NCBI GenBank assembly: GCA_035528115.1
Contig: DATKZF010000003.1
Location: forward strand, 551,089-615,088
Length of the DNA: 64,000 bases
Source of the DNA: Candidatus Bipolaricaulota bacterium
GTDB lineage: Bacteria; Patescibacteriota; Patescibacteriia; UBA11705; DATKZF01
Direction of reading: 5' to 3'
In this document: positions 10,927 to 62,323 of the stretch, one piece after another
How the letters are laid out: each line of letters opens with the position of its first letter
Numbering within the stretch: position 1 is the first letter of the stretch
Position numbers and translations under genes: made by a program
The notes under the pieces: generated by a model
Told to the model about the DNA's origin: nothing
Database searches by the model: none
Seen by the model: the letters and a program-made list of their open reading frames with translations, nothing else

Positions 10927-11002
10927 TGGTAGCGGGAGGGGGACTCGAACCCCCGACCTCCAGGTTATGGGCCTGGCGAGCTGCCAACTGCTCTATCCCG
11001 CG
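10927..11002 (-). tRNA. tRNA-Met-like (anticodon CAT) with a C1/U72 mismatch and C33; possible initiator-type
   Basis: The reverse complement gives CGCGGGA-TA-GAGC..GCTC-G-CCAGG-cCCATAa-CCTGG-AGGTC-GGGGG-TTCGAGT-CCCCC-TCCCGCT-A-CCA. Confidence 0.6.
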
Positions 11003-11402: not shown

Positions 11403-11544
11403 ATTTTATTGTCGTGCGCGCCTGCCTGCTCCTCGGGTCTGCCTTCGACGGCCCTGAGGGGCCGCTCAGGCCCTCGAAGGGAGCGACCTCGCCACTCGGC
11501 CGTGAGCTCGTGGCCGAACGGGAGTCGAAGACCGGCAGGCAGGT
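11403..11544 (+). repeat. GC-rich palindromic repeat element (B-module family)
   Basis: cctgcctgctcctcg...ctcgccactcggccgtgagctcgtggccgaacgggagtcgaagaccggcaggcagg, with inverted ends cctgcctgc/gcaggcagg. Related copies are at 20321, 57950 and 62020. Confidence 0.7.
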
Positions 11545-13412: not shown

Positions 13413-13979
13413 ATGAAAACAGCATCAAAAATCTTTTTGGCGGCGTTCATTATTCCTTTGGTGATTTCAGGTTGCAGTTGCTCGAAAAACAATACCTCGA
13501 ATATCGCCGATTTTCAAATCAAGGAACGCGAAGACGTTAAAGACGCGGTCAGAGATTGGGTGGTATTCACCAATCCGGCTTATCGCTATGAACTTCGTTC
13601 TCCGAAAGACTGGACGATTTCCGATGTCAATAAAGACGGAGAGGATGTCAGATTCTATCCGGAGAAAAACGCCATCACCGAAGATTATTTGGGGGATTTG
13701 AGGATTTTGGGCTATACGAATTGGCAGGAACATCTGCCGCTGGATGAATTCATAAAAACCAAAGCCGTTAACAATTATTATCAAATGAGCAACGCGGCGG
13801 ACAGGGAGGAATTAGAATTTCGAGGTTACTACGCCATGAGATTCAAAAATGTTGAACTCAAAAAAGATCAATTCATTGACGTGATCGTGGTGGATACCAA
13901 AGACAGCATAGTGGCCATTGAGCTTCACGGGTCATATGATGTCTTGACCAACATCATCAGCAGCATGTATTTTTATTGA
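13413..13979 (+). CDS. Hypothetical lipoprotein
   Basis: Signal peptide with a lipobox (LVISGCS); no recognisable domain. Confidence 0.4.
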   Translation: MKTASKIFLAAFIIPLVISGCSCSKNNTSNIADFQIKEREDVKDAVRDWVVFTNPAYRYELRSPKDWTISDVNKDGEDVRFYPEKNAITEDYLGDLRILGYTNWQEHLPLDEFIKTKAVNNYYQMSNAADREELEFRGYYAMRFKNVELKKDQFIDVIVVDTKDSIVAIELHGSYDVLTNIISSMYFY

Positions 13980-14324
13980 TTCAAAGACGATGTTGAAAAA
14001 TCCGACCGAGCGTCGGATTTTTTTGTTGTCGAATGAAAAAGCGGAGAGTCAAGCTCTCCGCTGGGGATGGATTTGAATTTTTGTTTTGTAGAATTTCTTT
14101 AGCGGAAAAAGCGGAGAGGCAATTTTTCCGCTGGGATTGGATTTGGGTTTTTGCCCAATGAAAAATTTTATTAGCAGGCGCAAAGGCTTTTTATTGGTGT
14201 GTATTTTTTCCCTTACCAGCGGAGAGCTTGACTCTCCGCTCATGGATTTATTTAAAATAAATAGCCGAGGTTCCTTGTTAGAAACCTCGGCCAAACGAAC
14301 GTGTGCGCGACTCGCGGTCATCGC

Positions 14325-15074
14325 TCATCGCTTTCGACAGCGATAGACTTTGAGCCGCGCGGGTTTGTCTCCGGCGTTGAGGACGAACGCGTTGAACACG
14401 CCGTCCTTGACCTCGCCGCTTTGGGTAGGACCCCAAAGGCAGGTCGCGCCGAATTTTTTTGGAGACACCGGCCAAAGGCTGGACTCCGTGTTGGAAAATC
14501 CAACATGGATTACGGCATCGCTCGGTGAAACATTGTCCACCAGGATGCCGAGCTGCCGGCCGTCGGCTTTGAGCATGACCTGCTTGCCCGGCAGGATTTC
14601 CTGGTCGAGCAGGAGCGGCATGCCGGGGTGAGTCCGTTCCGCGGGCGCGATCGGTGTCGCTCCCGCGGGGTTGGGGCGGCGGAAGCTTTCGAGGATCTCG
14701 CCACCGCACGAGATCATCCCGTAACCGAGGTAGCCCACGAATCCCAGCGCGGCAAGCCCCGCCAGGATCGCGCATACCGCGGTTACAATGTCCAACGACT
14801 CGCCGGCCGTATCGAAGGCCTTGGCCGGTTTTTTCGCCGGTGCCGGCGCCGCTGTCGGCGTCGTCGTTGCGGCGGGAGTGGACTCACTTGGCGCCGGGGT
14901 TGGCGCCGCCGTGGTCGCAGCGGCGGGCTTTCGGCTCGGGATGAGCGCGATCGCCAACGCGGCCACCAGACCGGCCGCGGCCAGGCCGGCCTCCCAGCGC
15001 CCCGAGACCATGATGGCCAGCGGAGCGAGGAGGAGGAGGAGGCCGATGAGCAACAGAATTCTTCCCGCTTTCAT
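14325..15074 (-). CDS. Membrane protein with a Pro/Ala/Thr-rich linker and a C-terminal beta domain (possible NfeD-like partner of the SPFH protein)
   Basis: Two N-terminal TMs, a PT-rich linker, a third TM, then a C-terminal domain. Overlaps the upstream SPFH gene by 1 nt. The GC-rich composition is unlike the surrounding sequence. Confidence 0.4.
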   Translation of the reverse strand: MKAGRILLLIGLLLLLAPLAIMVSGRWEAGLAAAGLVAALAIALIPSRKPAAATTAAPTPAPSESTPAATTTPTAAPAPAKKPAKAFDTAGESLDIVTAVCAILAGLAALGFVGYLGYGMISCGGEILESFRRPNPAGATPIAPAERTHPGMPLLLDQEILPGKQVMLKADGRQLGILVDNVSPSDAVIHVGFSNTESSLWPVSPKKFGATCLWGPTQSGEVKDGVFNAFVLNAGDKPARLKVYRCRKR

Positions 15075-16063
15075 CAGCTCTTCCCTCCAAGCCCCTTGAG
15101 GGCGTTCTGAAGAATGCCGGCGATATCGAGCGACAGCACCAACTTGGAACTGCCGCTGGAACCGATGGCCTTGGCCGCTTCGATGGCGGCCATGGCCTTC
15201 ATGTATTCGGCTTTCTGGCCTCCGCTCTCGAGCAGACCTAGCGCCTCGAGGGCCTCGGCCTCTGTCATCATGGCCACGGCCTTGCCCTCGGCCACCTTTA
15301 TGGCGACCTGCTTGGCCGCTTCGGCGTCGATGATCGCTCGCTCGCGCTCTTTCTCGGCGATTTTCACGCCAAGCGCAGCCTTTTCCAGCTCCGCTTTCTG
15401 CTGGAGCTGAATTCGAGGCACCTCATCGAGCGCCTGACGAATAGTTTCGTCGGCTGCCCGAATGACGTTGACTGTGACGCCCTCGAACAGGACGCCCCAT
15501 TCGCTTTCCTTTGTTTTGAGTTCATCCAGGATGGCCTTGGCAAGCTCTTTGCCCGCGCCAATCATCTTGTCGTAGCTTGTTGCGGCTGCCTGGCGTCTAA
15601 ATTCCCCCTGTACCTCGTCTTTGATCAGCTCGTCCTCGAGCCGACCGTGAACTGATAGAAAGAGTTTGACGCACTCGATCTCGGACAACCCGTGTTTGGT
15701 TGCCCATTTTTGTGGATCCAAACGCCAGTTGACCGAGATGATCTCAGCCAGAACGTCCATCCAGCCGACTTGTTTGTCAGATTCATCGTTCACCTTCGCG
15801 CGCGCCTCGAGCGAAGAGTAGTCCCTTGATTGCGTTTCGCGGGTGAAGTACGGCTTGTCGTCCGAGAACCTCTCGAGCGACTGGAGCAGCAGTTTGTTGA
15901 TCACGCGGATGCCCGCGTGCTTGACGGCCTCGATGCCGCCGCGGCCCATGACGATCATGATGTCGTTGGGCCGGAGAAAGTGGATGCGAAAGATCGCTCC
16001 CAGGATGAGAACGATCGTGCCCAGACCCATGACGAGCCCCAATAGCCAGTAATACTCTTCCAT
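15074..16063 (-). CDS. SPFH/band-7 family protein (flotillin/HflK-like)
   Basis: N-terminal TM, an SPFH-like core, and an Ala/Glu-rich coiled-coil tail (AELEKAALGVKIAEKERERAIIDAEAAKQ). The region is GC-rich. Confidence 0.5.
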   Translation of the reverse strand: MEEYYWLLGLVMGLGTIVLILGAIFRIHFLRPNDIMIVMGRGGIEAVKHAGIRVINKLLLQSLERFSDDKPYFTRETQSRDYSSLEARAKVNDESDKQVGWMDVLAEIISVNWRLDPQKWATKHGLSEIECVKLFLSVHGRLEDELIKDEVQGEFRRQAAATSYDKMIGAGKELAKAILDELKTKESEWGVLFEGVTVNVIRAADETIRQALDEVPRIQLQQKAELEKAALGVKIAEKERERAIIDAEAAKQVAIKVAEGKAVAMMTEAEALEALGLLESGGQKAEYMKAMAAIEAAKAIGSSGSSKLVLSLDIAGILQNALKGLGGKS

Positions 16064-16199
16064 CTTAATCTAATCCTCCCGTAAACGAAAACGTAAAAAT
16101 CTTTGCGGGAAAATCCCGCTTTTAGTTGTCAAAGTTCACAAAGTCACCATATTATTATATCATATTTAGTCAAAAAAGTCAATATTTGCGTATAAAACA

Positions 16200-16382
16200 A
16201 CAAAAAAACCCACTTTTTGGGTGGATTTTGAATATTAAATTGGGTGTTACAAATTACATTCACTATTTAGCTCCTGTTTGTATTGTTACGAAATTACATT
16301 CACTTATAGCCTTATGCCATAGAAGATTGTAATTTGTAACAGATAACCAAAAGCTAATTAGAATCTTGTAATTCGTAACAAT
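16200..16382 (+). repeat. AT-rich intergenic repeat array (gttacgaattacaa family)
   Basis: Contains the conserved aaattacattcactaaatag and gtaattcgtaac blocks shared with at least nine other intergenic regions. Confidence 0.6.
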
Positions 16383-16795: not shown

Positions 16796-18250
16796 TTAGA
16801 TTGATTTCTTAGTTGAAATTATTTTTTTCCAAGTTTGTTTTTTGAAACTGCCGATGTGAGCCTTGGCGTTTCTGGTTTTAACGAATTTGAGCCATTGCGG
16901 ATTGGGGCCTTTTCTGTTTTTATCGAGAGTGATCTCGACCACATCGCTGTTTTTCAATTTGGTTTCCAGAGGCACGTGAATGTCATTGACGTAAGCGCCG
17001 CCGCATTTATTGCCGACGTCCGAATGGATTTGATAAGCGAAGTCAATCGGCGTGGCGCCGTCCGGCAAATCAATGACATCGCCTTTGGGCGTGAACACGA
17101 AAATTCTATTTTGGAAAAAGTCGATTTTTAATGTTTCCAAAAATTTATCGTCGTCTTTTATTTCTTTTTGCCAATTGGCCAATTCTTTGACCCAGGCGAT
17201 GTCTTTTTCCTTGATGCCTTTTGATTCTTTGTAATGCCAATGAGAGGCAATACCGTATTCGGCCTGATTGTGCATTTCTTGAGTTCTGATTTGGAATTCG
17301 ATCGGTTCTTGATTGTCTCCGAAGACGGTGGTGTGCAGCGAGCGGTAGCCGTTGGGTTTGGGTTGGGAAATATAATCCTTAATTTTGCCTTTGATCGGCT
17401 TCCAGAGACTGTGAATGATGCCGAGCGTGGCATAGCAGTCGGCGACGTCTTTTAAAATGATTCGCGCGGCCACCAGGTCGTAAATGCGGTCAATGTCTTT
17501 GTTGCTTTTCATCAGTTTTCTGTACAAACTGTAATAATGTTTGGTGCGGCCGTAAGCGTCAATGTATTTTATTTTATTTTCGATCAATTTTCGTTTTAAT
17601 TTTTTCAGCATGGCGTCCATGGCGCGCTGTTTGAATTGCAATCTTTTCTTGATCAAATTTTCAACCCAGATGTATTCATCGGGAAAGGCGTATTTAAAAG
17701 ATTCATCTTCGAGTTTGGCTTGCAATTCTCCGATGCCCAGGCGGTTGGCGATGGGCGCGTAAATTTCCAAAACCTCCATGGCGATTCTTTTTTGCTTGTT
17801 GGCGGGCAGGGCGTAGAGAGTGCGCAAGTTATGCAGACGATCCGCGAATTTGATGACAATGACTCTGATGTCTCTGGCCATGGCCACGAACATTTTTCTC
17901 AAATTTTCGACATATCGCTTCATGCCTCGGTATTTGACCGTGCCCAGTTTGGTGACGCCTTCCACCATGCCGGCCACGTCGTCCCCGAAATTCTTTCTGA
18001 CATCTTCCAGCGTGTAGGTCGTGTCTTCGGGCACATCATGAAGCAGGCCGGCGATGATCATGTTGGTGTTGACTTTCAGATCGGCCAGGTTTTGCGCTGT
18101 GGCCAAGGCATGATCGATATAATCCACGCCCGTGGCGCGGCGCTGGCCATCATGCGCTTTTTTCGCGAATTCATAAGCCAGTTCCACCATTTCCAGGTCG
18201 GCTTTGGGATTGTACTTTTTTATGGTTGTGAGCAGTTTTCTAATGGTCAT
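16796..18250 (-). CDS. rel: Bifunctional (p)ppGpp synthetase/hydrolase Rel (HD-Synth-TGS; lacks the long C-terminal regulatory region)
   Basis: Intact HD motif LLHDVPEDT, synthetase motif YRSLHTTV, and a TGS domain. Confidence 0.8.
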   Translation of the reverse strand: MTIRKLLTTIKKYNPKADLEMVELAYEFAKKAHDGQRRATGVDYIDHALATAQNLADLKVNTNMIIAGLLHDVPEDTTYTLEDVRKNFGDDVAGMVEGVTKLGTVKYRGMKRYVENLRKMFVAMARDIRVIVIKFADRLHNLRTLYALPANKQKRIAMEVLEIYAPIANRLGIGELQAKLEDESFKYAFPDEYIWVENLIKKRLQFKQRAMDAMLKKLKRKLIENKIKYIDAYGRTKHYYSLYRKLMKSNKDIDRIYDLVAARIILKDVADCYATLGIIHSLWKPIKGKIKDYISQPKPNGYRSLHTTVFGDNQEPIEFQIRTQEMHNQAEYGIASHWHYKESKGIKEKDIAWVKELANWQKEIKDDDKFLETLKIDFFQNRIFVFTPKGDVIDLPDGATPIDFAYQIHSDVGNKCGGAYVNDIHVPLETKLKNSDVVEITLDKNRKGPNPQWLKFVKTRNAKAHIGSFKKQTWKKIISTKKSI

Positions 18251-18257
18251 AAATACA

Positions 18258-19862
18258 TTATAGCAGACCTTTAAGTTTAAGGTATCTTTTTATCTGCTTT
18301 TCCGCTTGCGGCGTCTTGACGAAATTCAACCAGTCCAGATCCGGGCCTTCCGAATTGATATCGGGAATTATTTCAATCACGTCCTCATTTTGCAGTTTTC
18401 TGTTCAATTCCGCCGGTTGATTGTTGATAATCGCGAATTTGCAGTAATTGCCAAGGTCGCTGTGAATCTGATAAGCGAAGTCCACGGGGGTCGAGCCTTT
18501 GGGCAGGGAAACGGCGTCGCCTTTGGGCGAATAGACGTAAATTTTTTCTTGAAATATTTTGCTGACCTCGTCTTCCCAAACGTTTTTGTGAAACAATGAT
18601 TTGCCCGTGTGGAGAATTTTTTTCGTCCAGTCGTCCTCTGATTCCTTGTTTTTATAAAAAAGCTGGGCGGCAATGCCGAATTGAGCGGAGCGGTGCATGT
18701 CCTTCGTTCGGATTTGAAATTCGGTCAATTGATTGCCGGGCCCGATGATCGTTGTGTGCAAAGTTTGATAGCCGTTTGATTTGGGAGAGGCGATATAGTC
18801 TTTTATTCTTTTGGGCACGGGCGGCCACAATCCGTGAATCAAGCTCAACATTAAGTAACAGTCGTCGACCGAATCGACAATAACGCGCAAAGCAAACACA
18901 TCGTAAATATTATTGAACGTTTTTTGTTTGGTTTTCATTTTTCGGTAAATGCTGTAGTAGTGTTTGAATCGGCCGTTGACATCGCATTTGATTTTCTTTT
19001 CTTCCGCCTCGTTTCTGACGGTTTTGGCGAGTTTGGCAATGTATTTGTCTCGTGTTTTTCTGTCTTCTTCGCCGAAACGTTTTTCGATTTTTTGATATTC
19101 TTCCGGCTGGAGTATGCGGAAGGAATAATCTTCGAGTTGCCAGCGAAGATGCCACACGCCCAGCATGTCCGCGATCGGCGCCAAAATTTCTTTGGCTTGT
19201 TTGGCCACGAGATAGCGATCTTCATCCGGTATTCTTTCGTAATTGATCAGAGAATCAATGGCCGAGGCCATTTTCACCAAAATTATGCGCACGTCTTGAG
19301 ACATCACCAGCAGGATTTCGCGTACATTGCTGTTGAAGCTTTTGGTTTTGTTGGCATAGTGATTGATTTTTTTGTACGTTTGCAAAATGTCCGCTAATTT
19401 TTTTCCCAACTTCTCTTCCACGATTTTGTCGGATTCGGGATTGAGCCGAGAGACATGGTGCAAAAGACCGGTGATAATCGTCAAATGATCCATGCCGGTT
19501 CGGCTTAATATCTCGGCGGTATTCAGGGAATGCCGCATGTATTCGATCTTTTGTATTTCCGAGAAAAGAGCCACGGCCAGATTCAAGGCCATGGCTATTT
19601 TAACGTTTTCTTCGCCGATGAGGGTCTTTATTTCTTTTTCCTTATCGGGATGATTTTTTAATATTTTATGCGCCAGCGCCGCGCCAATGAACCCCGCGCC
19701 GGCTCTGCCGGCCGCCAGCCGGTTCGCCAATTCGATTGTTTGAGATTTATCGTCAAAGCTCAATTCTCCGGCCGCGTTTTGGAAATATTCAAACATTGCC
19801 GAGAGAGCTTCGTGCCCTTCCGGCTTTCTTTCGATATATTCCGAGAGTATTTTGCTTTGCAT
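18258..19862 (-). CDS. relA: RelA/SpoT paralog with a degenerate HD domain (synthetase-only type)
   Basis: HD is replaced by LLHHVSRL (no Asp), the synthetase motif GYQTLHTTIIG is intact, and TGS is present. It sits in tandem with rel. Confidence 0.7.
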   Translation of the reverse strand: MQSKILSEYIERKPEGHEALSAMFEYFQNAAGELSFDDKSQTIELANRLAAGRAGAGFIGAALAHKILKNHPDKEKEIKTLIGEENVKIAMALNLAVALFSEIQKIEYMRHSLNTAEILSRTGMDHLTIITGLLHHVSRLNPESDKIVEEKLGKKLADILQTYKKINHYANKTKSFNSNVREILLVMSQDVRIILVKMASAIDSLINYERIPDEDRYLVAKQAKEILAPIADMLGVWHLRWQLEDYSFRILQPEEYQKIEKRFGEEDRKTRDKYIAKLAKTVRNEAEEKKIKCDVNGRFKHYYSIYRKMKTKQKTFNNIYDVFALRVIVDSVDDCYLMLSLIHGLWPPVPKRIKDYIASPKSNGYQTLHTTIIGPGNQLTEFQIRTKDMHRSAQFGIAAQLFYKNKESEDDWTKKILHTGKSLFHKNVWEDEVSKIFQEKIYVYSPKGDAVSLPKGSTPVDFAYQIHSDLGNYCKFAIINNQPAELNRKLQNEDVIEIIPDINSEGPDLDWLNFVKTPQAEKQIKRYLKLKGLL

Positions 19863-20008: not shown

Positions 20009-20085
20009 TTGATGTTTTGGGACAGTTCCCAATGACGCGAACACTCCTTGTGCGTTTTCCTGCAAGGAGTGTTTTGTTTTAAACG
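20009..20085 (+). ncRNA. Candidate small RNA, possibly encoding a leader peptide (9-codon ORF MLMFWDSSQ), ending in an intrinsic terminator
   Basis: The consensus promoter immediately upstream is followed by the stem aacactccttg/caaggagtgtt and a ttgtttt T-run. Confidence 0.35.
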
Positions 20086-20300
20086 TTACAAATTCCAGCA
20101 GCTGATAAGCTAGCCTTGGTTTTAGTTTTTGTGAGTCGTTACGAATGATTACAAATACGTTTACGTTACGAATTATTGCGGCTATTTAGCTATCCTTAGC
20201 GTCATATTTATTACAAATACGTTACAAATTCCAGCAGCTGATAAGCTTGCCTTGGTTTTTGGCTTTGTGAATCGTTACGAATAATTACAAATAATGGGCG
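20060..20300 (+). repeat. AT-rich tandem repeat array (ccagcagctgataagc... and gttacgaat units)
   Basis: Two ~140-bp direct repeats: acaaattccagcagctgataagcttgccttggtttt...tgtgagtcgttacgaatgattacaaat. Confidence 0.6.
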
Positions 20301-20304
20301 TAGG

Positions 20305-20450
20305 CGTTGTCATCTCGACCGCCTGCCTGCTCCTCGAGTCTGAGCTCGCCACTCGGCCGTGAGCTCGTGGCCGAACGGGAGTCGAAGACCGGCAGGCAGG
20401 AAGTCGTCCGAAGCCGCGGCGAAGGATGACGAAGTGGAGAGAGCTTTTCC
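20305..20450 (+). repeat. GC-rich modular element, full A-B-C copy (MITE-like)
   Basis: Module A cgttgtcatctcgacc, module B palindromic cctgcctgc...gcaggcagg, module C aagtcgtccgaagccgcggcgaaggatgacgaagtggagagagcttttcc. Confidence 0.7.
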
Positions 20451-27636: not shown

Positions 27637-28227
27637 AAAGTTATTTTAATTTATCACAAATTTTTGAAATTACAAATAATTACGAATTGAGTTATCTAAG
27701 CTGAAGCGTTTGTATTGACAATTCCAATAAGCTTGTGCTATTTTAATCATGCGCACGCGGCTGGGTGCGCGATGTCAGCTTTCCTGCGAATCGGCCGAGG
27801 ACGATTCGCAAGCTGCGCCAGCGCCGCAAACATCCGCCTCTACCCACATCGTTTTTCCCTCTGGGGCCTCGGCCTTCTGAACCCGCTCGACTCTCATGTC
27901 TTGCGGGTTCTGTCTTTTAAATTACAAATAATTGGGTCGAAGAGGAGAATCTATGTTTTGGTTTAACTGTTTTGTCAGTAATCGGTAAACAGTAAGCCGT
28001 CAAAATGACACAGAAGAGCAGAGAGTCGAGCTCTCTGCTGGGATAGATAAAAAAGGTGTTTTGTTGGTTTATTTATTTCCTAGCGGAAAGCTTGCCTTTC
28101 CGCTCATCCCGCCAATTGACAGAACAAAAAAATCGAGCTAAGTTGAAATCGACATTGGTTCCTTTATATATAGAGAACAGCAATTTACAGGAAACACGTA
28201 AATTTAGATGAAAAATCTCTTCAAGTA

Positions 28228-28256
28228 TTGACTTTTTGTATGAATTGTGATATAAT
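28228..28256 (+). promoter_or_regulatory. Consensus sigma70 promoter (TTGACT-17-TATAAT) for the GC-rich secreted protein gene, followed by a ~190-nt structured leader
   Basis: ttgact ttttgtatgaattgtga tataat. The leader contains hairpins gggcttta/taaagccc and ccccc/ggggg next to the ribosome-binding site. Confidence 0.5.
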
Positions 28257-28456
28257 GCAAGGTCAGTATCAAATGGGGAGATAACATCTATATATCGATA
28301 ATGCCTGGAATTTTGCTTATCGGCCCCGAGCCATGTTAGCAGCCCCTCCTCTGCTGTCTGTGCTTTAAGCTGATAAGCAAGATTCCGGGCTTTATTTGTT
28401 TAAAGCCCCGAGAGAAAGTTTAACAATCCCCCGACAAGGGGGGAAAGGTCCTGATC

Positions 28457-29038
28457 ATGAAGACGACGTTGATCGTTGTGGCGGCCCTCGTGGTCGCCCT
28501 GGCCGGTTCGGACTCTTTTGCCCGCGGCAGCCGGCCACGCGGTCAGACCCCTCGTGGCCAGACCGTTCGTGGCGGCCAGACCGCCGAGCGCGCGAGCTAC
28601 CGCAACACCCCGCGCGGTCAGTCCCCTCGGGGACAGGTGGCTCGCGGCCGCGCTCCTCGTGGAGAGGTCCGCGGCGGATCCTACCGTCGTGGCGGCGCCT
28701 ACCGCCCGGCGGTGTATGGTCGCGGCGGGGTCGGCTTCCACGTCGAGTTCGGGTTCGGCATTCTGCAGCCCCGGACTGTGTACGTGGCGCCGCAGCCCGT
28801 GGTCGTGGTCTCCGCGTGCTCGTACGATGAGCCGTGGAACTGCGCCCCGGCCGGACCCTTTTCGTTTAGCGGCTCCCACTACTACTACAGCGTCGGCAAC
28901 GGCCTGTGGTACATCGTGGGGCCCAACCCGTTCTTGATCAACAAGAACCCGGGTGGCTACCCCGTCTCGGACAGGTATCTGGTCGAGGCGCGGCGTAGCT
29001 ACCTCATGCATCCGGCTGCTTACGCCGTGGTGCGGTAG
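28457..29038 (+). CDS. Secreted Arg/Gly-rich repeat protein (hypothetical); GC-rich gene
   Basis: Signal peptide MKTTLIVVAALVVALAGSDSFA, PRGQ/RG repeats, and a strong ribosome-binding site (aaggggggaaagg). The composition is strikingly GC-rich compared with the flanking sequence. Confidence 0.5.
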   Translation: MKTTLIVVAALVVALAGSDSFARGSRPRGQTPRGQTVRGGQTAERASYRNTPRGQSPRGQVARGRAPRGEVRGGSYRRGGAYRPAVYGRGGVGFHVEFGFGILQPRTVYVAPQPVVVVSACSYDEPWNCAPAGPFSFSGSHYYYSVGNGLWYIVGPNPFLINKNPGGYPVSDRYLVEARRSYLMHPAAYAVVR

Positions 29039-29067: not shown

Positions 29068-29112
29068 AACAAAAGGACGCTAGGTCTTACCCTATGCGTC
29101 CTTTTTCGTTTT
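29068..29112 (+). terminator. Intrinsic terminator after the RG-rich protein gene
   Basis: aggacgc..gcgtcct hairpin followed by tttttcgtttt. A perfect 13-bp palindrome tagagacgcgccgc/ggcgcgtctcta follows. Confidence 0.5.
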
Positions 29113-29201
29113 AAATGCGCGGTCATCGGCGGCGACGCCGATGGTAGAGACGCGCCGCGGCGCGTCTCTACGCGCGGGCGTATGCCCGCGGCCGCGCCAT
29201 A

Positions 29202-31167: not shown

Positions 31168-31620
31168 TTACAAATTACGAATAATTGCATCGAATAGGAC
31201 AAGCTTGGTTTAGGTTTATCTGTTTGCTACGAATTGTTGCTTCTATGTAGCTTGCCTTTGCCTTGAAATTACGAATAATTGCATCGAATAGGACAATCTT
31301 GGCTTTGGTTTAGGTGACTTATTACAAATAATTACGAATGAGGCGGGAAAGTTGATGGCTACTTAAAAAGCTAATAAGCTACAACCTATTACAAATAGTT
31401 GCGTCTGGCAGGACAAGCTGTGTTTAGACCTTAACGTTTATTGCGAATAATTACAAATGGTTACGAATTACAATAGACTATTCAGCTTTCAGGTTATTTG
31501 TTACGAATTACAATATTCTCAGGCATAAAGTTATAAGTTAATGTACTTTGTAACAATACAAATAAAGAGCCATTTAGTGAATGTAATTCGTAACGACTCC
31601 CCGGCTTCTCTGTTTCATGC
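31168..31620 (+). repeat. AT-rich tandem repeat array (attacgaataattgcatcgaataggacaagcttgg... and gttacgaattacaat units)
   Basis: Multiple 45- to 110-bp direct repeats that share blocks with arrays at 35900, 54400, 57440 and 60560. Confidence 0.65.
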
Positions 31621-35899: not shown

Positions 35900-36230
35900 T
35901 TTTTATCTTCATTATGGAAATATTACGAATTACAATATTCTATTTAGCTTTCAGGTTATTTGTTACGAATTACAAGATTCTGTTTAGCTTCTATGTTATC
36001 TGTTACGAATTACAATATTCTATTTAGCTTCTATGTTATTTGTTACGTATTACAATCGACTATTAAGCTTTCAGGTTATCTGTTACTAATTACAATCATC
36101 TATAGCTATATGCCTTAGAATCTTGTACTTCGTAACGATCGTTTCTAAGCCAAATGGAACCTTGTACTTCGTAACAATATAAATAAAGAGCTATTTAGTG
36201 AATGTAATTTGTAACGACGCGCGGCGTTTG
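35900..36230 (+). repeat. AT-rich tandem repeat array (gttacgaattacaat units of ~45 bp)
   Basis: About six tandem units. It ends with the conserved block aataaagagctatttagtgaatgtaatttgtaacgac, which is also present at 31560-31600. Confidence 0.7.
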
Positions 36231-54399: not shown

Positions 54400-54720
54400 T
54401 TTGAATATTACGAATCTCTACTTCCGATAGGACAAGCTAGGTTTAGGTTTATCTGTTTTGGTTACGAATTACTAAAGCTGTTTAGCTTGCCTTGGCCTGG
54501 AAATTACGAATCTCTACTTCCGATAGGACAAGCTATGTTTAGGTTTAACTGTTTTAGTTACGAATTACTAAAGCTGTTTAGCTTGCCTTGGCCTAGAAAA
54601 TCGCGAATATCTATTTAAATTAGGACAAGCTAGGTTTAGGCCTTGTTTGTTTTGTTACAAATACAGAATTCCAAATAGCTTAGCTTGGCGATGAAAGCTA
54701 CGAATAATCTTTTTATTAAG
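54400..54720 (+). repeat. AT-rich tandem repeat array (~120-bp units, reverse orientation of the 60640-61070 array)
   Basis: The unit attacgaatctctacttccgataggacaagctaggtttaggtttatctgttttggttacgaattactaaagctgtttagcttgccttggcc is repeated. ggacaagctaggtttaggccttgtttgttttgttacaaata is the reverse complement of the units at 60700. Confidence 0.7.
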
Positions 54721-54851
54721 GAAAAAATTACGATGAGCGGAGAGACAAGCTCTCCGCTGGATAAAAAAATAGGCAATCTTTCTACAAACCCAGCAGAGAG
54801 CTTGTCTCTCTGCTCATCAATATTTATGGCCAAGATTTTTCAGCGCTTGTT

Positions 54852-57439: not shown

Positions 57440-57660
57440 ATTGTTACGAATTACAATCATCTAGTGGGCCGATTAATATATGTTACAAATTACATTCATC
57501 CATGGCTTTATGTTTGAGAATCTTGTAATATGTAACAAATAACATAGAAGCTAAATAGAATCTTGTAATTCGTAACAAATAACCTAAAAGCCAAACAGTC
57601 GATTGTAATTCGTAACAGATAACCTAGAAGCTAAATAGAATTTTGTAATTCGTAACAATA
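57440..57660 (+). repeat. AT-rich tandem repeat array (reverse orientation, cttgtaattcgtaacaaataacct... units)
   Basis: About four ~45-bp units. Confidence 0.65.
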
Positions 57661-57867: not shown

Positions 57868-58063
57868 TTGTCATTTCGACCGACGACGATAGGAGGAGCG
57901 GAGAAATCTGCTTAAAAGGAGATAGCAGATCTCTCCACTTCGTCATCCTTCGCTAACGCTTCGGACGACTTCCTGCCTGCCGGTCTTCGACTCCCGTTCG
58001 GCCACGAGCTCACGGCCGAGTGGCGAGCTCAGACTCGAGGAGCAGGCAGGCGGTCGAGATGAC
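57868..58063 (+). repeat. GC-rich MITE-like element, reverse-orientation full copy bounded by 13-bp terminal inverted repeats
   Basis: ttgtcatttcgacc at the left end and ggtcgagatgacaa at the right end enclose the reverse complement of modules C and B. Confidence 0.65.
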
Positions 58064-58104
58064 AACTTCTTTTTACTAATTACCATTTACTGATTTCTGT
58101 TTAC

Positions 58105-60560: not shown

Positions 60561-61080
60561 TTTTTTAGGCTAAGGCAAGCTAATTTGTAACTATTTGTAA
60601 TAAAATCGAAAAGGCCAAAACCAAGGATAGCTTAATAGCGGCAGTCATTTGTAACATCAGTTTTTATCGCCAAGCCAAGCTATTTGGAAGCCCATATTTG
60701 TAACAAAACAAACAAGGCCTAAACCTAGCTTGTCCTCATAGCAGCAGTTATTCGTAACGTCAGTTTTTATCGCCAAGCTAAGCTATTTTGAAGCCCATAT
60801 TTGTAACAAAACAGACAAGGCCTAAACCTAGCTCGTCCTCATAGCAGCAGTTATTCGTAACGTCAGTTTTTATCGCCAAGCTAAGCTATTTTGAAGCCCA
60901 TATTTGTAACAAAACAAACAAGGCCTAAACCTAGCTTGTCCTAATAGCGGCAGTCATTTGTAACATCAGTTTTTATCGCCAAGCTAAGCTATTTTGAAGC
61001 CCATATTTGTAACAAAACAGACAAGGCCAAAACCTAGCTTGTCCTTATAGCCGTAGTTATTTGTAACGTAGTGGATAAGT
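60560..61080 (+). repeat. Tandem array of four ~120-bp AT-rich units
   Basis: The unit agcagttattcgtaacgtcagtttttatcgccaagctaagctattttgaagcccatatttgtaacaaaacaaacaaggcctaaacctagcttgtcctcat is repeated four times with a few substitutions. Confidence 0.75.
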
Positions 61081-61962: not shown

Positions 61963-62300
61963 TGTTACGAAGTACAAGATTCTAAGGCATATAGCTATAA
62001 TAGATGAATGTAATTCCTGCCTGCTCCTCGAGTCTGAGCTCGCCACTCGGCCGTGAGCTCGTGGCCGAACGTGAGTCGAAGACCGGCAGGCAGGCGTAAC
62101 AGATAACCTGAAAGCCAAATAGTCGATTGTAATACGTAACAAATAACCTGAAAGTTTAATAGTCGATTGTAATACGTAACAGATAACCTGAAAGCTTAAT
62201 AGTCGATTGTAATACGTAACAGATAACCTGAAAGTTTAATAGTCGATTGTAATACGTAACAAATAACCTGAAAGCTTAATAGAATATTGTAATTCGTAAC
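61962..62300 (+). repeat. AT-rich tandem repeat array with an embedded GC-rich B-module (62020-62100)
   Basis: The unit gtaacagataacctgaaagcttaatagtcgattgtaatac is repeated about five times, and the B-module cctgcctgctcctcgagtctgagctcgccactcggccgtgagctcgtggccgaacgtgagtcgaagaccggcaggcagg is inserted within the array. Confidence 0.7.
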
Positions 62301-62323
62301 ATTCCAAGTCCCGGTAAATTTCT

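Follow-up and report, generated by a model that had tools for sequence, protein, structure and literature searches.

A GC-rich SPFH operon with a lineage-specific partner in a Falkowbacteria-like Patescibacterium: probably a resident envelope locus and not an inserted island

Described SPFH Operons and the Locus Under Study

In several described systems, an SPFH (band-7) gene forms an operon with the gene of a small membrane protein. Such partner families co-evolve with their SPFH proteins and show weak sequence conservation (PMC2636767, PMC4208085), and Hinderhofer et al. described NfeD-type proteins as poorly conserved (PMC2636767). The short form of NfeD has about 140-150 amino acids (aa), with about three N-terminal hydrophobic stretches, a brief hydrophilic segment, and a C-terminal domain that is soluble and all-beta (PMC2636767). 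Here we analyze a pair of genes of this kind in a 64,000-nucleotide (nt) stretch of an assembly labeled Candidatus Bipolaricaulota bacterium (GCA_035528115.1, contig DATKZF010000003.1, positions 551,089 to 615,088; referred to as “the window”), where they coincide with a sharp rise in guanine-plus-cytosine (GC) content. The first gene (15074..16063) encodes an SPFH protein and the second (14325..15074) its putative membrane partner. In our judgment the pair is probably a resident, vertically inherited, and fast-evolving two-gene envelope operon of a Falkowbacteria-like Patescibacterium, consisting of an SPFH scaffold and its partner, with a GC excess kept at equilibrium, and not an inserted island.

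The operon is organized as in Escherichia coli qmcA-ybbJ (SPFH1 with a short NfeD), where the SPFH gene also comes first, followed by the small membrane partner with overlapping stop and start codons. Like QmcA, its SPFH protein has an N-terminal transmembrane (TM) helix, an SPFH domain, and an Ala/Glu-rich C-terminal region, but the strong divergence of this domain limits the Pfam alignment to half of the profile. Unlike YbbJ, to which it has no detectable similarity, the partner is about 100 aa longer, carries a Pro/Thr/Ala-rich linker between its second and third TM helices (TM2 and TM3), and has a beta domain that is predicted to be extracytoplasmic. With Pyrococcus horikoshii PH1510/PH1511, Bacillus subtilis YuaF-FloT, and E. 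coli YqiJ-YqiK (SPFH2 with NfeD2), the operon has in common the pairing of an SPFH protein with a membrane protein that ends in a small all-beta part, a predicted one in the window. However, it has no ClpP-type protease domain, its partner gene is second instead of first as in yqiJK and yuaFG, and no sequence or profile link connects the partner to NfeD or YqiJ, nor is an oligonucleotide/oligosaccharide-binding (OB) fold demonstrated. HflK/HflC (SPFH3, the FtsH-regulating cage) similarly have an N-terminal TM anchor, and the SPFH protein has a weak NCBIfam similarity to them in the coiled-coil, far below the cut-offs. HflK and HflC form a pair of paralogs, both of them SPFH proteins that face the periplasm, whereas the window has a single SPFH protein, predicted to be cytoplasmic, and a non-SPFH partner.

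The Compositional Step and the Genes That Fill It

Measured in 300-nt windows, GC is 0.40-0.44 at 13.4-14.3 kb, reaches 0.59-0.72 at 14.3-15.3 kb, lies at 0.52-0.62 over 15.3-16.1 kb, and then drops to 0.31-0.39. The two 1-kb bins at 14-16 kb have a GC of 0.59 and 0.585, compared to 0.34-0.56 in the remaining 62 bins, and in 60-nt bins the step matches the ends of the coding sequences (about 14281 and about 16080). The GC-rich stretch at 14300-16070 is thus filled exactly by the two genes, both on the minus strand. Their GC at third codon positions (GC3; Table 1) lies well above that of the 48 other open reading frames (ORFs) in the window (0.530±0.053; z about 4.1-4.6). Windowed GC, GC3, and codon computations therefore agree with a first-pass annotation of the same DNA, which had described the two overlapping minus-strand genes as markedly GC-rich. 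The background is about 45% GC, moderately and not strongly AT-rich.

The two proteins contain 12-16% Ala and are also rich in Gly and Pro. Under the codon usage of the genome itself, the SPFH and partner genes would have a GC of 0.49 and 0.58, compared to the observed 0.58 and 0.655, so amino-acid composition accounts for only part of the excess. Both base composition and codon usage are therefore atypical, as looked for in genomic islands. The stop codon of the SPFH gene and the start codon of the partner gene share one base (UGAUG, a 1-nt overlap), and the two genes are translationally coupled.

A sharp compositional step in a contig that comes from a metagenome-assembled genome (MAG) could also reflect an assembly chimera or a contaminating GC-rich fragment. 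However, JGI, ENA, and Logan, each assembling independently and from different samples, obtained identical junctions for the segment, which shows that it is not a chimera; it is also internal to the contig, with a host-type promoter, terminator, and synteny. The population is present in the samples JGI 3300031565, ERZ27256828, and SRR8554643. We give this explanation next to no credence.

Homologous Pairs in the Same Slot of Related Genomes

For comparison we used two Candidatus Falkowbacteria MAGs (L004 and L005) and metagenome loci (L numbers from L012 on) recovered by a scan anchored on the lineage-specific lipoprotein encoded beside the operon, except L029, which came from a protein search. 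L004 and L005 keep the gene order RelA, RelA, pilin, SPFH, partner, lipoprotein, ParB, ParA, with partner, SPFH, and pilin genes read in one direction and lipoprotein and ParB genes in the other, and their RelA/SpoT proteins are 67-68% identical to the adjacent one in the window. In both, the pair consists of a TM-plus-SPFH protein and a protein with a TM hairpin, a Thr/Pro-rich linker, a TM helix, and a beta-rich tail. The lipoprotein-anchored scan added 17 further loci, 14 of them long enough to show the slot, and the pair is present in 11 of these 14. In total, about 15 related Falkowbacteria-like contigs have a homologous pair in this slot (L004, L005, L012, L014-L021, L025, L028, and L029), and no empty site was found among the relatives examined. 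Adjacency of the partner to the SPFH gene is conserved in all related loci examined save L022-L024, a group of near-identical contigs that has instead a single unrelated 405-aa membrane ORF of no family (L022 8580-9797). The slot is dynamic in other ways as well, since the cassette is tandemly duplicated in L025 (6668-11348), which has two SPFH genes and three partner genes.

Although NCBI labels the source of the window as Candidatus Bipolaricaulota, its gene order and the RelA identity of 67-68% place it with Candidatus Falkowbacteria (Patescibacteria, Parcubacteria group). The gene is found on contigs of up to 762,837 bp.

Within this synteny-defined set, the SPFH protein of the window matches those of L029 (E 1.5e-11), L018 (1e-8), L012 (4e-7), and L016 (7e-6). 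It aligns end-to-end with those of L029, L012, and L014, sharing the motifs D.VQG.FRR and WGV..V.V..IRAAD and the C-terminal tail, and lacks an insertion of about 90 residues found in these three. The partner of the window matches those of L020 (E 2e-7) and L016 (2e-4). The family falls into two sequence clusters, which hhalign joins with a probability of 96% (E 1e-9) for the SPFH protein and 97.5% (E 7e-12) for the C-terminal domain of the partner. P0003, the top non-self match of an exhaustive protein search (see below), sits in the same context (L029).

The two-gene cassette of the window is 26-30% identical to those of its clade, whose members are 25-37% identical among themselves, while in the same clade the lipoproteins are 44-57% and ParB 74-79% identical. 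As the cassette identities are alike throughout the clade, the cassette is uniformly fast-evolving and the window copy is no outlier. An apparent excess divergence of the window cassette vanished once L029 was added and identities were taken over aligned columns. Between the near relatives L014 and L015, synonymous divergence (dS) is 0.48-0.79 in all five genes, and the ratio of nonsynonymous to synonymous divergence (dN/dS) is 0.03-0.05 for ParA/ParB, 0.12 for the lipoprotein, 0.11 for the SPFH protein, and 0.19 for the partner. The similar dS and low dN/dS indicate functional genes that co-diverge with their flanks under purifying selection.

The SPFH Protein

Judged from its sequence, the product of the first gene is a divergent SPFH protein of the stomatin/QmcA type, with a single TM helix at its N-terminus. 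Its match to Pfam Band_7 (PF01145) is real but weak (E 1.2e-6, 29.1 bits against a cut-off of 23.6) and covers profile positions 67-172 only. Band_7 is also found in six of nine clade members at E<=0.1 (best 4.7e-11), and the proteins of L029, L025, and L004 score above the cut-off unaided (42.9, 37.4, and 35.5 bits, respectively). The best solved match of the family SPFH profile is E. coli QmcA (PDB 8z5g; E 2.4e-4), with an hhalign probability of 94% on the C-terminal motif; alignments of the C-terminal region span QmcA 172-277 and 230-277. The SPFH/band-7 assignment of the first-pass annotation is borne out by these matches.

The protein consists of an acidic 6-aa N-terminus, a TM helix at residues 7-25, the divergent SPFH domain, and a helical C-terminal region rich in Ala, Glu, and Lys with a conserved motif (SSKLVLS...GGKS). 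Most SPFH proteins of the family have a single N-terminal TM helix, while hydropathy shows two or three hydrophobic stretches in L012, L025a, and L025b. The topology of both operon proteins was assessed from hydropathy and charge distribution across the family, and additionally from Cys content for the beta domain of the partner. Basic residues follow the TM helix of the SPFH protein, and by the positive-inside rule its SPFH and coiled-coil parts are predicted to lie on the cytoplasmic side. A single-sequence AlphaFold model is all-helical with a mean predicted local distance difference test (pLDDT) score of 50.6, a long helix at 196-274 being the sole part at pLDDT 70-78.

The Partner Protein and Its Relation to NfeD

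By hydropathy, the partner has a TM hairpin (6-24 and 29-47) and a third TM helix (96-114), with a Pro/Thr/Ala/Lys-rich linker (48-95) between them, followed by a beta-rich, Cys-containing C-terminal domain of about 110 aa. Across the family, the partners are 216-249 aa long with a TM2-TM3 linker of 35-50 aa, have one to three TM helices depending on the member, and carry an SGxLQ[IV][KR]-like motif with an invariant Gly. The basic linker is predicted to be cytoplasmic, and the beta domain to be external, on the other side of the membrane from the SPFH domain.

The first-pass annotation had likened the operon to stomatin/NfeD and YqiJ/YqiK pairs. This likeness stands for the order of the two genes and their overlapping stop and start, as in qmcA-ybbJ, but does not extend to membership in NfeD. 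Searched against Pfam, NCBIfam, PADLOC, and PHROGs, the partner gave no meaningful family match; the NfeD profile (PF01957) matched none of nine family members, the window partner included, at E<=1; hhalign found no similarity to YbbJ or YqiJ (probability below 1%); and PDB profile searches with the full-length partner and with its C-terminal domain returned no solved NfeD structure. A low-confidence AlphaFold model draws the C-terminal domain as five beta strands (pLDDT 35-50 there), and a Foldseek search of this model against PDB gave no match at E<=0.001 and was uninformative.

The partner could nevertheless be an extremely diverged true NfeD in a canonical stomatin-NfeD system, with an OB-fold on the SPFH side of the membrane. 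NfeD proteins are well known for their divergence (21% identity between YuaF and PH0471; PMC2636767), QmcA is the closest solved relative of the SPFH protein and is followed by an NfeD gene in the same arrangement, and the three TM helices and five modeled strands would suit such a protein. We nonetheless regard this as unlikely. In addition to the negative profile, hhalign, and PDB results, the partners, at their length and with their long TM2-TM3 linker, differ from the 140-150 aa of short NfeD, and charge and Cys content place the beta domain outside and the SPFH domain inside. It is more plausible that the second gene represents a lineage-specific family of SPFH-operon partners, which may work like NfeD although homology to NfeD is not demonstrated.

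A GC Excess Common to Much of the Family

Both genes exceed their flanking genes by about 0.15-0.4 in GC3 in 7 of 13 distinct loci measured (window included), whatever the background GC. The differences (SPFH/partner) are +0.19/+0.21 in the window, +0.29/+0.41 in L012, +0.19/+0.22 in L014, +0.20/+0.22 in L015, +0.17/+0.14 in L016, +0.18/+0.16 in L017, and about +0.2/about +0.2 in L029, and only the partner is elevated in L019 and L028. The excess is confined to coding sequence: the spacers are AT-rich (GC 0.22-0.45), as is a 147-nt gap inside the L028 operon (0.24). Strand bias as the cause of the codon shift was ruled out for the window, L014, and L017, where the GC3 shift survives comparison with same-strand genes, but it explains most of the shift in L018.

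The codons that gain are the C- and G-ending two-fold codons, Leu CTC/CTG, and Arg CGN. In the window, GC at four-fold sites is equal in the cassette (0.77) and in the rest of the genome (0.73-0.78), so the cassette differs entirely through its two-fold codons, its choice of Leu and Arg codons, and its amino-acid content. As synonymous sites are saturated and yet offset alike on backgrounds ranging from GC3 0.25 to 0.56, the excess appears to be an equilibrium kept by an ongoing process, and not an un-ameliorated import. Candidates for this process are GC-biased conversion or repair at a recombining variable locus, codon selection, and recurrent allelic replacement from a GC-richer pool.

The four-fold sites of the window genome are unusual in themselves. 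Essentially all of its genes have a four-fold GC of 0.6-0.85 and yet prefer A/T-ending two-fold codons, whereas four-fold GC is merely 0.2-0.35 in the closest relatives (L012, L014, L015, L017, and L029), which suggests that synonymous GC has moved strongly upward in this lineage, with an odd split between two-fold and four-fold sites.

Origin of the Operon

From the compositional contrast, the first-pass annotation had proposed horizontal acquisition. In a recent event of this kind, a GC-rich SPFH/NfeD-like operon of foreign origin would have entered between the lipoprotein gene and the pilin gene, with the bordering repeats marking the insertion. The contrast and the atypical codon usage are indeed strong, the site between two convergent terminators would be permissive for insertion, and SPFH/NfeD operons are known to transfer laterally together (PMC2636767). 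Several findings speak against this proposal: related genomes carry a homologous pair at this site and none has it empty, the closest homologs are syntenic copies, the copies of relatives have the same GC3 offset, and the four-fold-site GC of the two genes equals that of the host genome.

The search for a donor was similarly negative. Word-indexed searches of 5.8 billion protein clusters, with both proteins and with the C-terminal domain of the partner alone, returned the query itself or nothing, and an exhaustive phmmer search of the SPFH protein against 1.84 billion representatives gave just four weak non-self matches (E 4e-5 to 6e-4) and no donor. With only these four matches, no donor phylogeny is possible and no donor lineage can be named. 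A phage or defense origin was also considered and dropped: tblastn against 50,697 phage records, an IMG/VR scan, and PADLOC gave nothing, and PHROGs gave only the weak SPFH-like phrog_200. No mobility genes are present between 12.5 and 18.3 kb, and the nearest tRNAs are at 10.7-11.2 kb.

The repeats that were thought to border an island do exist on both sides, but neither marks an island boundary, since both belong to genome-wide intergenic families. The hairpins of the form GCGGAGAG...CTCTCCGC on the lipoprotein side are a dispersed repetitive extragenic palindrome (REP)-like or terminator-like family with 14 strand-matches in the window (0.4 expected) and further copies at 28017-28104 and 54736-54814. 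The 13-mer GTTACRAATTACA on the pilin side has 42 matches in the window (1.7 expected). These repeats inflate the two spacers of the operon to 345 nt (lipoprotein to partner) and 319 nt, compared to 45-92 and 122-186 nt, respectively, in relatives. A 33-nt inverted repeat (13997-14029 and 16197-16229) was considered as a pair of element termini and rejected; both arms are hairpins with T-runs that follow convergent neighbors, and we read them as terminators. In sum, the locus shares with classical genomic islands its atypical GC and codon usage and its sharp boundaries, but differs from them in being occupied in relatives, in lacking mobility genes, a tRNA target, and island-specific direct repeats, and in having an atypical composition that is confined to coding sequence and common to orthologous copies. 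A recent acquisition is therefore very improbable.

A subtler form of transfer is older or xenologous allelic replacement, in which a GC-richer cassette circulating among Patescibacteria would have been swapped in via the conserved flanks, once in the clade ancestor or repeatedly. The locus is dynamic enough for this, with the L025 duplication, the unrelated 405-aa ORF of L022-L024, and the two cassette clusters; the GC excess is patchy over the family; the cassette divergence in the clade (25-37% identity) exceeds an extrapolation from L014/L015 rates; and the window contains another GC-rich orphan gene whose codon signature is the same (28457..29038; see below). However, the excess never falls below -0.07 and none of the cassettes exceeds its host in AT, a pattern that exchange among genomes of 33-45% GC would not be expected to give. 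The offset of about +0.2 is nearly constant at saturated synonymous sites, where an amelioration model would predict its erasure. Furthermore, the cassette of the window clusters with those of its flank-relatives, and that of L014/L015 co-diverges with its flanks. On balance we consider replacement doubtful.

The excess could also come from codon selection alone, as a preference for C- and G-ending codons in a very highly expressed operon with ordinary mutation and recombination. A near-consensus extended -10 promoter and a strong ribosome-binding site (Table 1) fit this explanation, as do the strict confinement of the excess to coding sequence and the fact that the most consistent shift across loci is toward NNC and CTC/CTG. 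Selection of this kind does not readily account for the G-ending two-fold and Arg CGN codons, which also rise in the window, L012, L014, and L017, nor for four-fold GC, which rises where the background is low and thus indicates an across-the-board GC shift. The adjacent pilin-like gene, likely abundant too, has no shift, and FtsZ and FtsA in the window are ordinary, in a comparison set without ribosomal-protein genes. We rate codon selection, too, as an improbable sole cause.

As a more specific proposal, which we put forward only tentatively and with less than even confidence, a locus-specific force may raise GC at this hypervariable envelope operon and produce a stable, coding-sequence-limited offset of about +0.2 GC3 that tracks host GC. 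A candidate would be GC-biased gene conversion at a recombination hotspot kept by diversifying selection on a surface-exposed partner, and the gene at 28457..29038 would be another instance. If real, such a force would leave the kind of compositional signature that is classically read as horizontal transfer. Lassalle et al. (2015; PMC4450053) proposed an effect of GC-biased conversion for bacteria, and biased conversion at this recombining locus would make it an unusually strong bacterial example.

This second GC-rich islet is a single coding sequence on the plus strand (28457-29038; GC 0.665). It encodes a 193-aa protein with a signal peptide, Arg/Gly-rich PRGQ-like repeats, and no Pfam match, and has the same two-fold-codon signature as the SPFH pair (C2 0.79, G2 1.0). 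Upstream is a promoter-like TTGACT-17-TGTGATATAAT (about 28230-28258), and beside the islet are GC-rich, hairpin-rich non-coding stretches (27740-27900 and 29100-29200) without an Rfam match.

Several observations weigh against a resident operon with an equilibrium GC excess. The similarity between the window proteins and their syntenic counterparts is in the twilight zone and significant only inside the small synteny-defined set, and BLASTP of the window proteins against L004 and L005 was not significant. The excess is absent in L018, L021, and L025 and in the SPFH genes of L019 and L020, and is thus not obligatory for the operon, while the window copy has the highest absolute GC of all copies. 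The excess may stem from a GC-richer relative by allelic replacement, from an old transfer into the ancestor of the clade, or from codon selection in a highly expressed operon. Regarding the proteins, both single-sequence AlphaFold models have a pLDDT of about 50 and confirm neither the SPFH nor the partner fold, and the predicted topology has the positive-inside rule as its sole basis. Even so, we consider the resident, vertically inherited operon the probable explanation. The sole unusual point is then the persistent GC excess limited to coding sequence, which the operon has in common with the orphan gene 28457..29038.

Proposed Role in the Envelope

By analogy with described SPFH proteins, the first gene product would oligomerize, giving a ring or cage that is anchored to the membrane on its cytoplasmic face. 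The co-translated partner may co-assemble with this scaffold via its TM helices and basic cytoplasmic linker; the scaffold would then organize or stabilize the partner, whose rapidly diverging beta domain may be exposed at the cell surface. The partner would in this way be a functional counterpart of NfeD-type partners.

Organisms of this kind probably live attached to other cells. The fast-evolving pilin-like protein, lipoprotein, and cassette fit an envelope region under diversifying pressure; in the pilin-like protein it is the N-terminal part that is hypervariable, and the lipoprotein diverges quickly. The operon would add a lineage-specific SPFH-plus-partner module, located beside a pilin-like gene and parAB, to what is described of Falkowbacteria-like bacteria. 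Its partner family has no entry in Pfam, NCBIfam, or PADLOC and is a candidate for a component that organizes the membrane or belongs to the surface. The locus also serves as a counter-example to the reading of a GC-atypical patch as horizontal transfer, which matters for the use of island-prediction tools on genomes of candidate phyla.

Genetic Organization and Neighboring Features

The coordinates of the operon and its immediate neighbors are listed in Table 1. The operon is flanked by two convergently transcribed neighbors, each ending in its own terminator-like hairpin, and the hairpin of the pilin-like gene separates that transcription unit from the SPFH promoter. The short GC hairpin in the leader may possibly form a 5' stem-loop in the mRNA; an Rfam search of the region found no RNA family.

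Table 1. Features of the SPFH operon and its borders (positions in the window).
Feature	Position	Strand	Basis
Promoter-like site of the operon (TTGACT, 17 nt, TGaTATAAT)	16154..16182	-	Consensus scan, 11/12 matches, extended -10; spacer 22-37% GC
Short GC hairpin GCGGGATTTTCCCGC in the 5' leader of about 85 nt	16105..16119	-	Sequence and scan
GGGAGGA ribosome-binding site, 10 nt upstream of the SPFH start codon (ATG at 16063)	16074..16080	-	Read from sequence
SPFH/Band-7 gene, 329 aa, GC 0.58, GC3 0.745	15074..16063	-	ORF, Pfam, hydropathy
Partner gene, 249 aa, GC 0.655, GC3 0.771	14325..15074	-	ORF, hydropathy, family comparison
Intrinsic-terminator-like hairpin, 14 pairs then T-rich tail, 32 nt past the partner stop	14262..14293	-	Scan
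Three hairpin-repeat copies GCGGAGAG...CTCTCCGC (14040-14062, 14110-14132, and 14218-14240, inverted)	14035..14240		Repeat search
Four GTTACRAATTACA copies, two direct and two inverted	16245..16382		Repeat search
Terminator-like hairpin of the upstream pilin-like gene	16205..16229	-	Scan
Hairpin AAAAATCCGAC...GTCGGATTTTT and T-run after the lipoprotein gene, read as terminator	13996..14022	+	Inverted-repeat search; not reported by terminator scan
Lipoprotein gene, convergent neighbor	13413..13979	+	ORF
Type IV secretion system (T4SS)-pilin-like gene, PF18895	16383..16793	-	Pfam

A 90-aa ORF (14049-14321, minus strand) that spans the operon terminator and the three hairpin repeats is present in the JGI annotation and absent from the ENA annotation, and is probably not a gene. 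Beyond the pilin-like gene are two tandem RelA/SpoT-family paralogs (16796-18250 and 18258-19862, minus strand) with HD, RelA_SpoT, and TGS domains, a pair that is kept in the Falkowbacteria-like relatives whose loci extend far enough.

Other repeats are spread over the window. The GTTACRAATTACA copies form intergenic arrays with a 40-nt period, direct copies being followed by inverted ones (16246-16379, 31460-31594, 35922-36215, 57443-57656, 62095-62301, and others). Two tandem arrays with a GTTACRAATTAC core and 88-91% matches are located at 54403-54640 (96-nt units, 2.5 copies) and 60592-61067 (103-nt units, 4.6 copies), and a dispersed repeat of 59-140 nt with 92-100% identity occurs at 11485-11543, 20083-20400, 57927-58066, and 62016-62094.

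The ENA contig is 99.99% identical to the window until 10930, inside a tRNA-Met gene (10927-11002), and then departs from it (L002 15135-16066), which reflects either a strain-variable junction at the tRNA gene or an assembly break.

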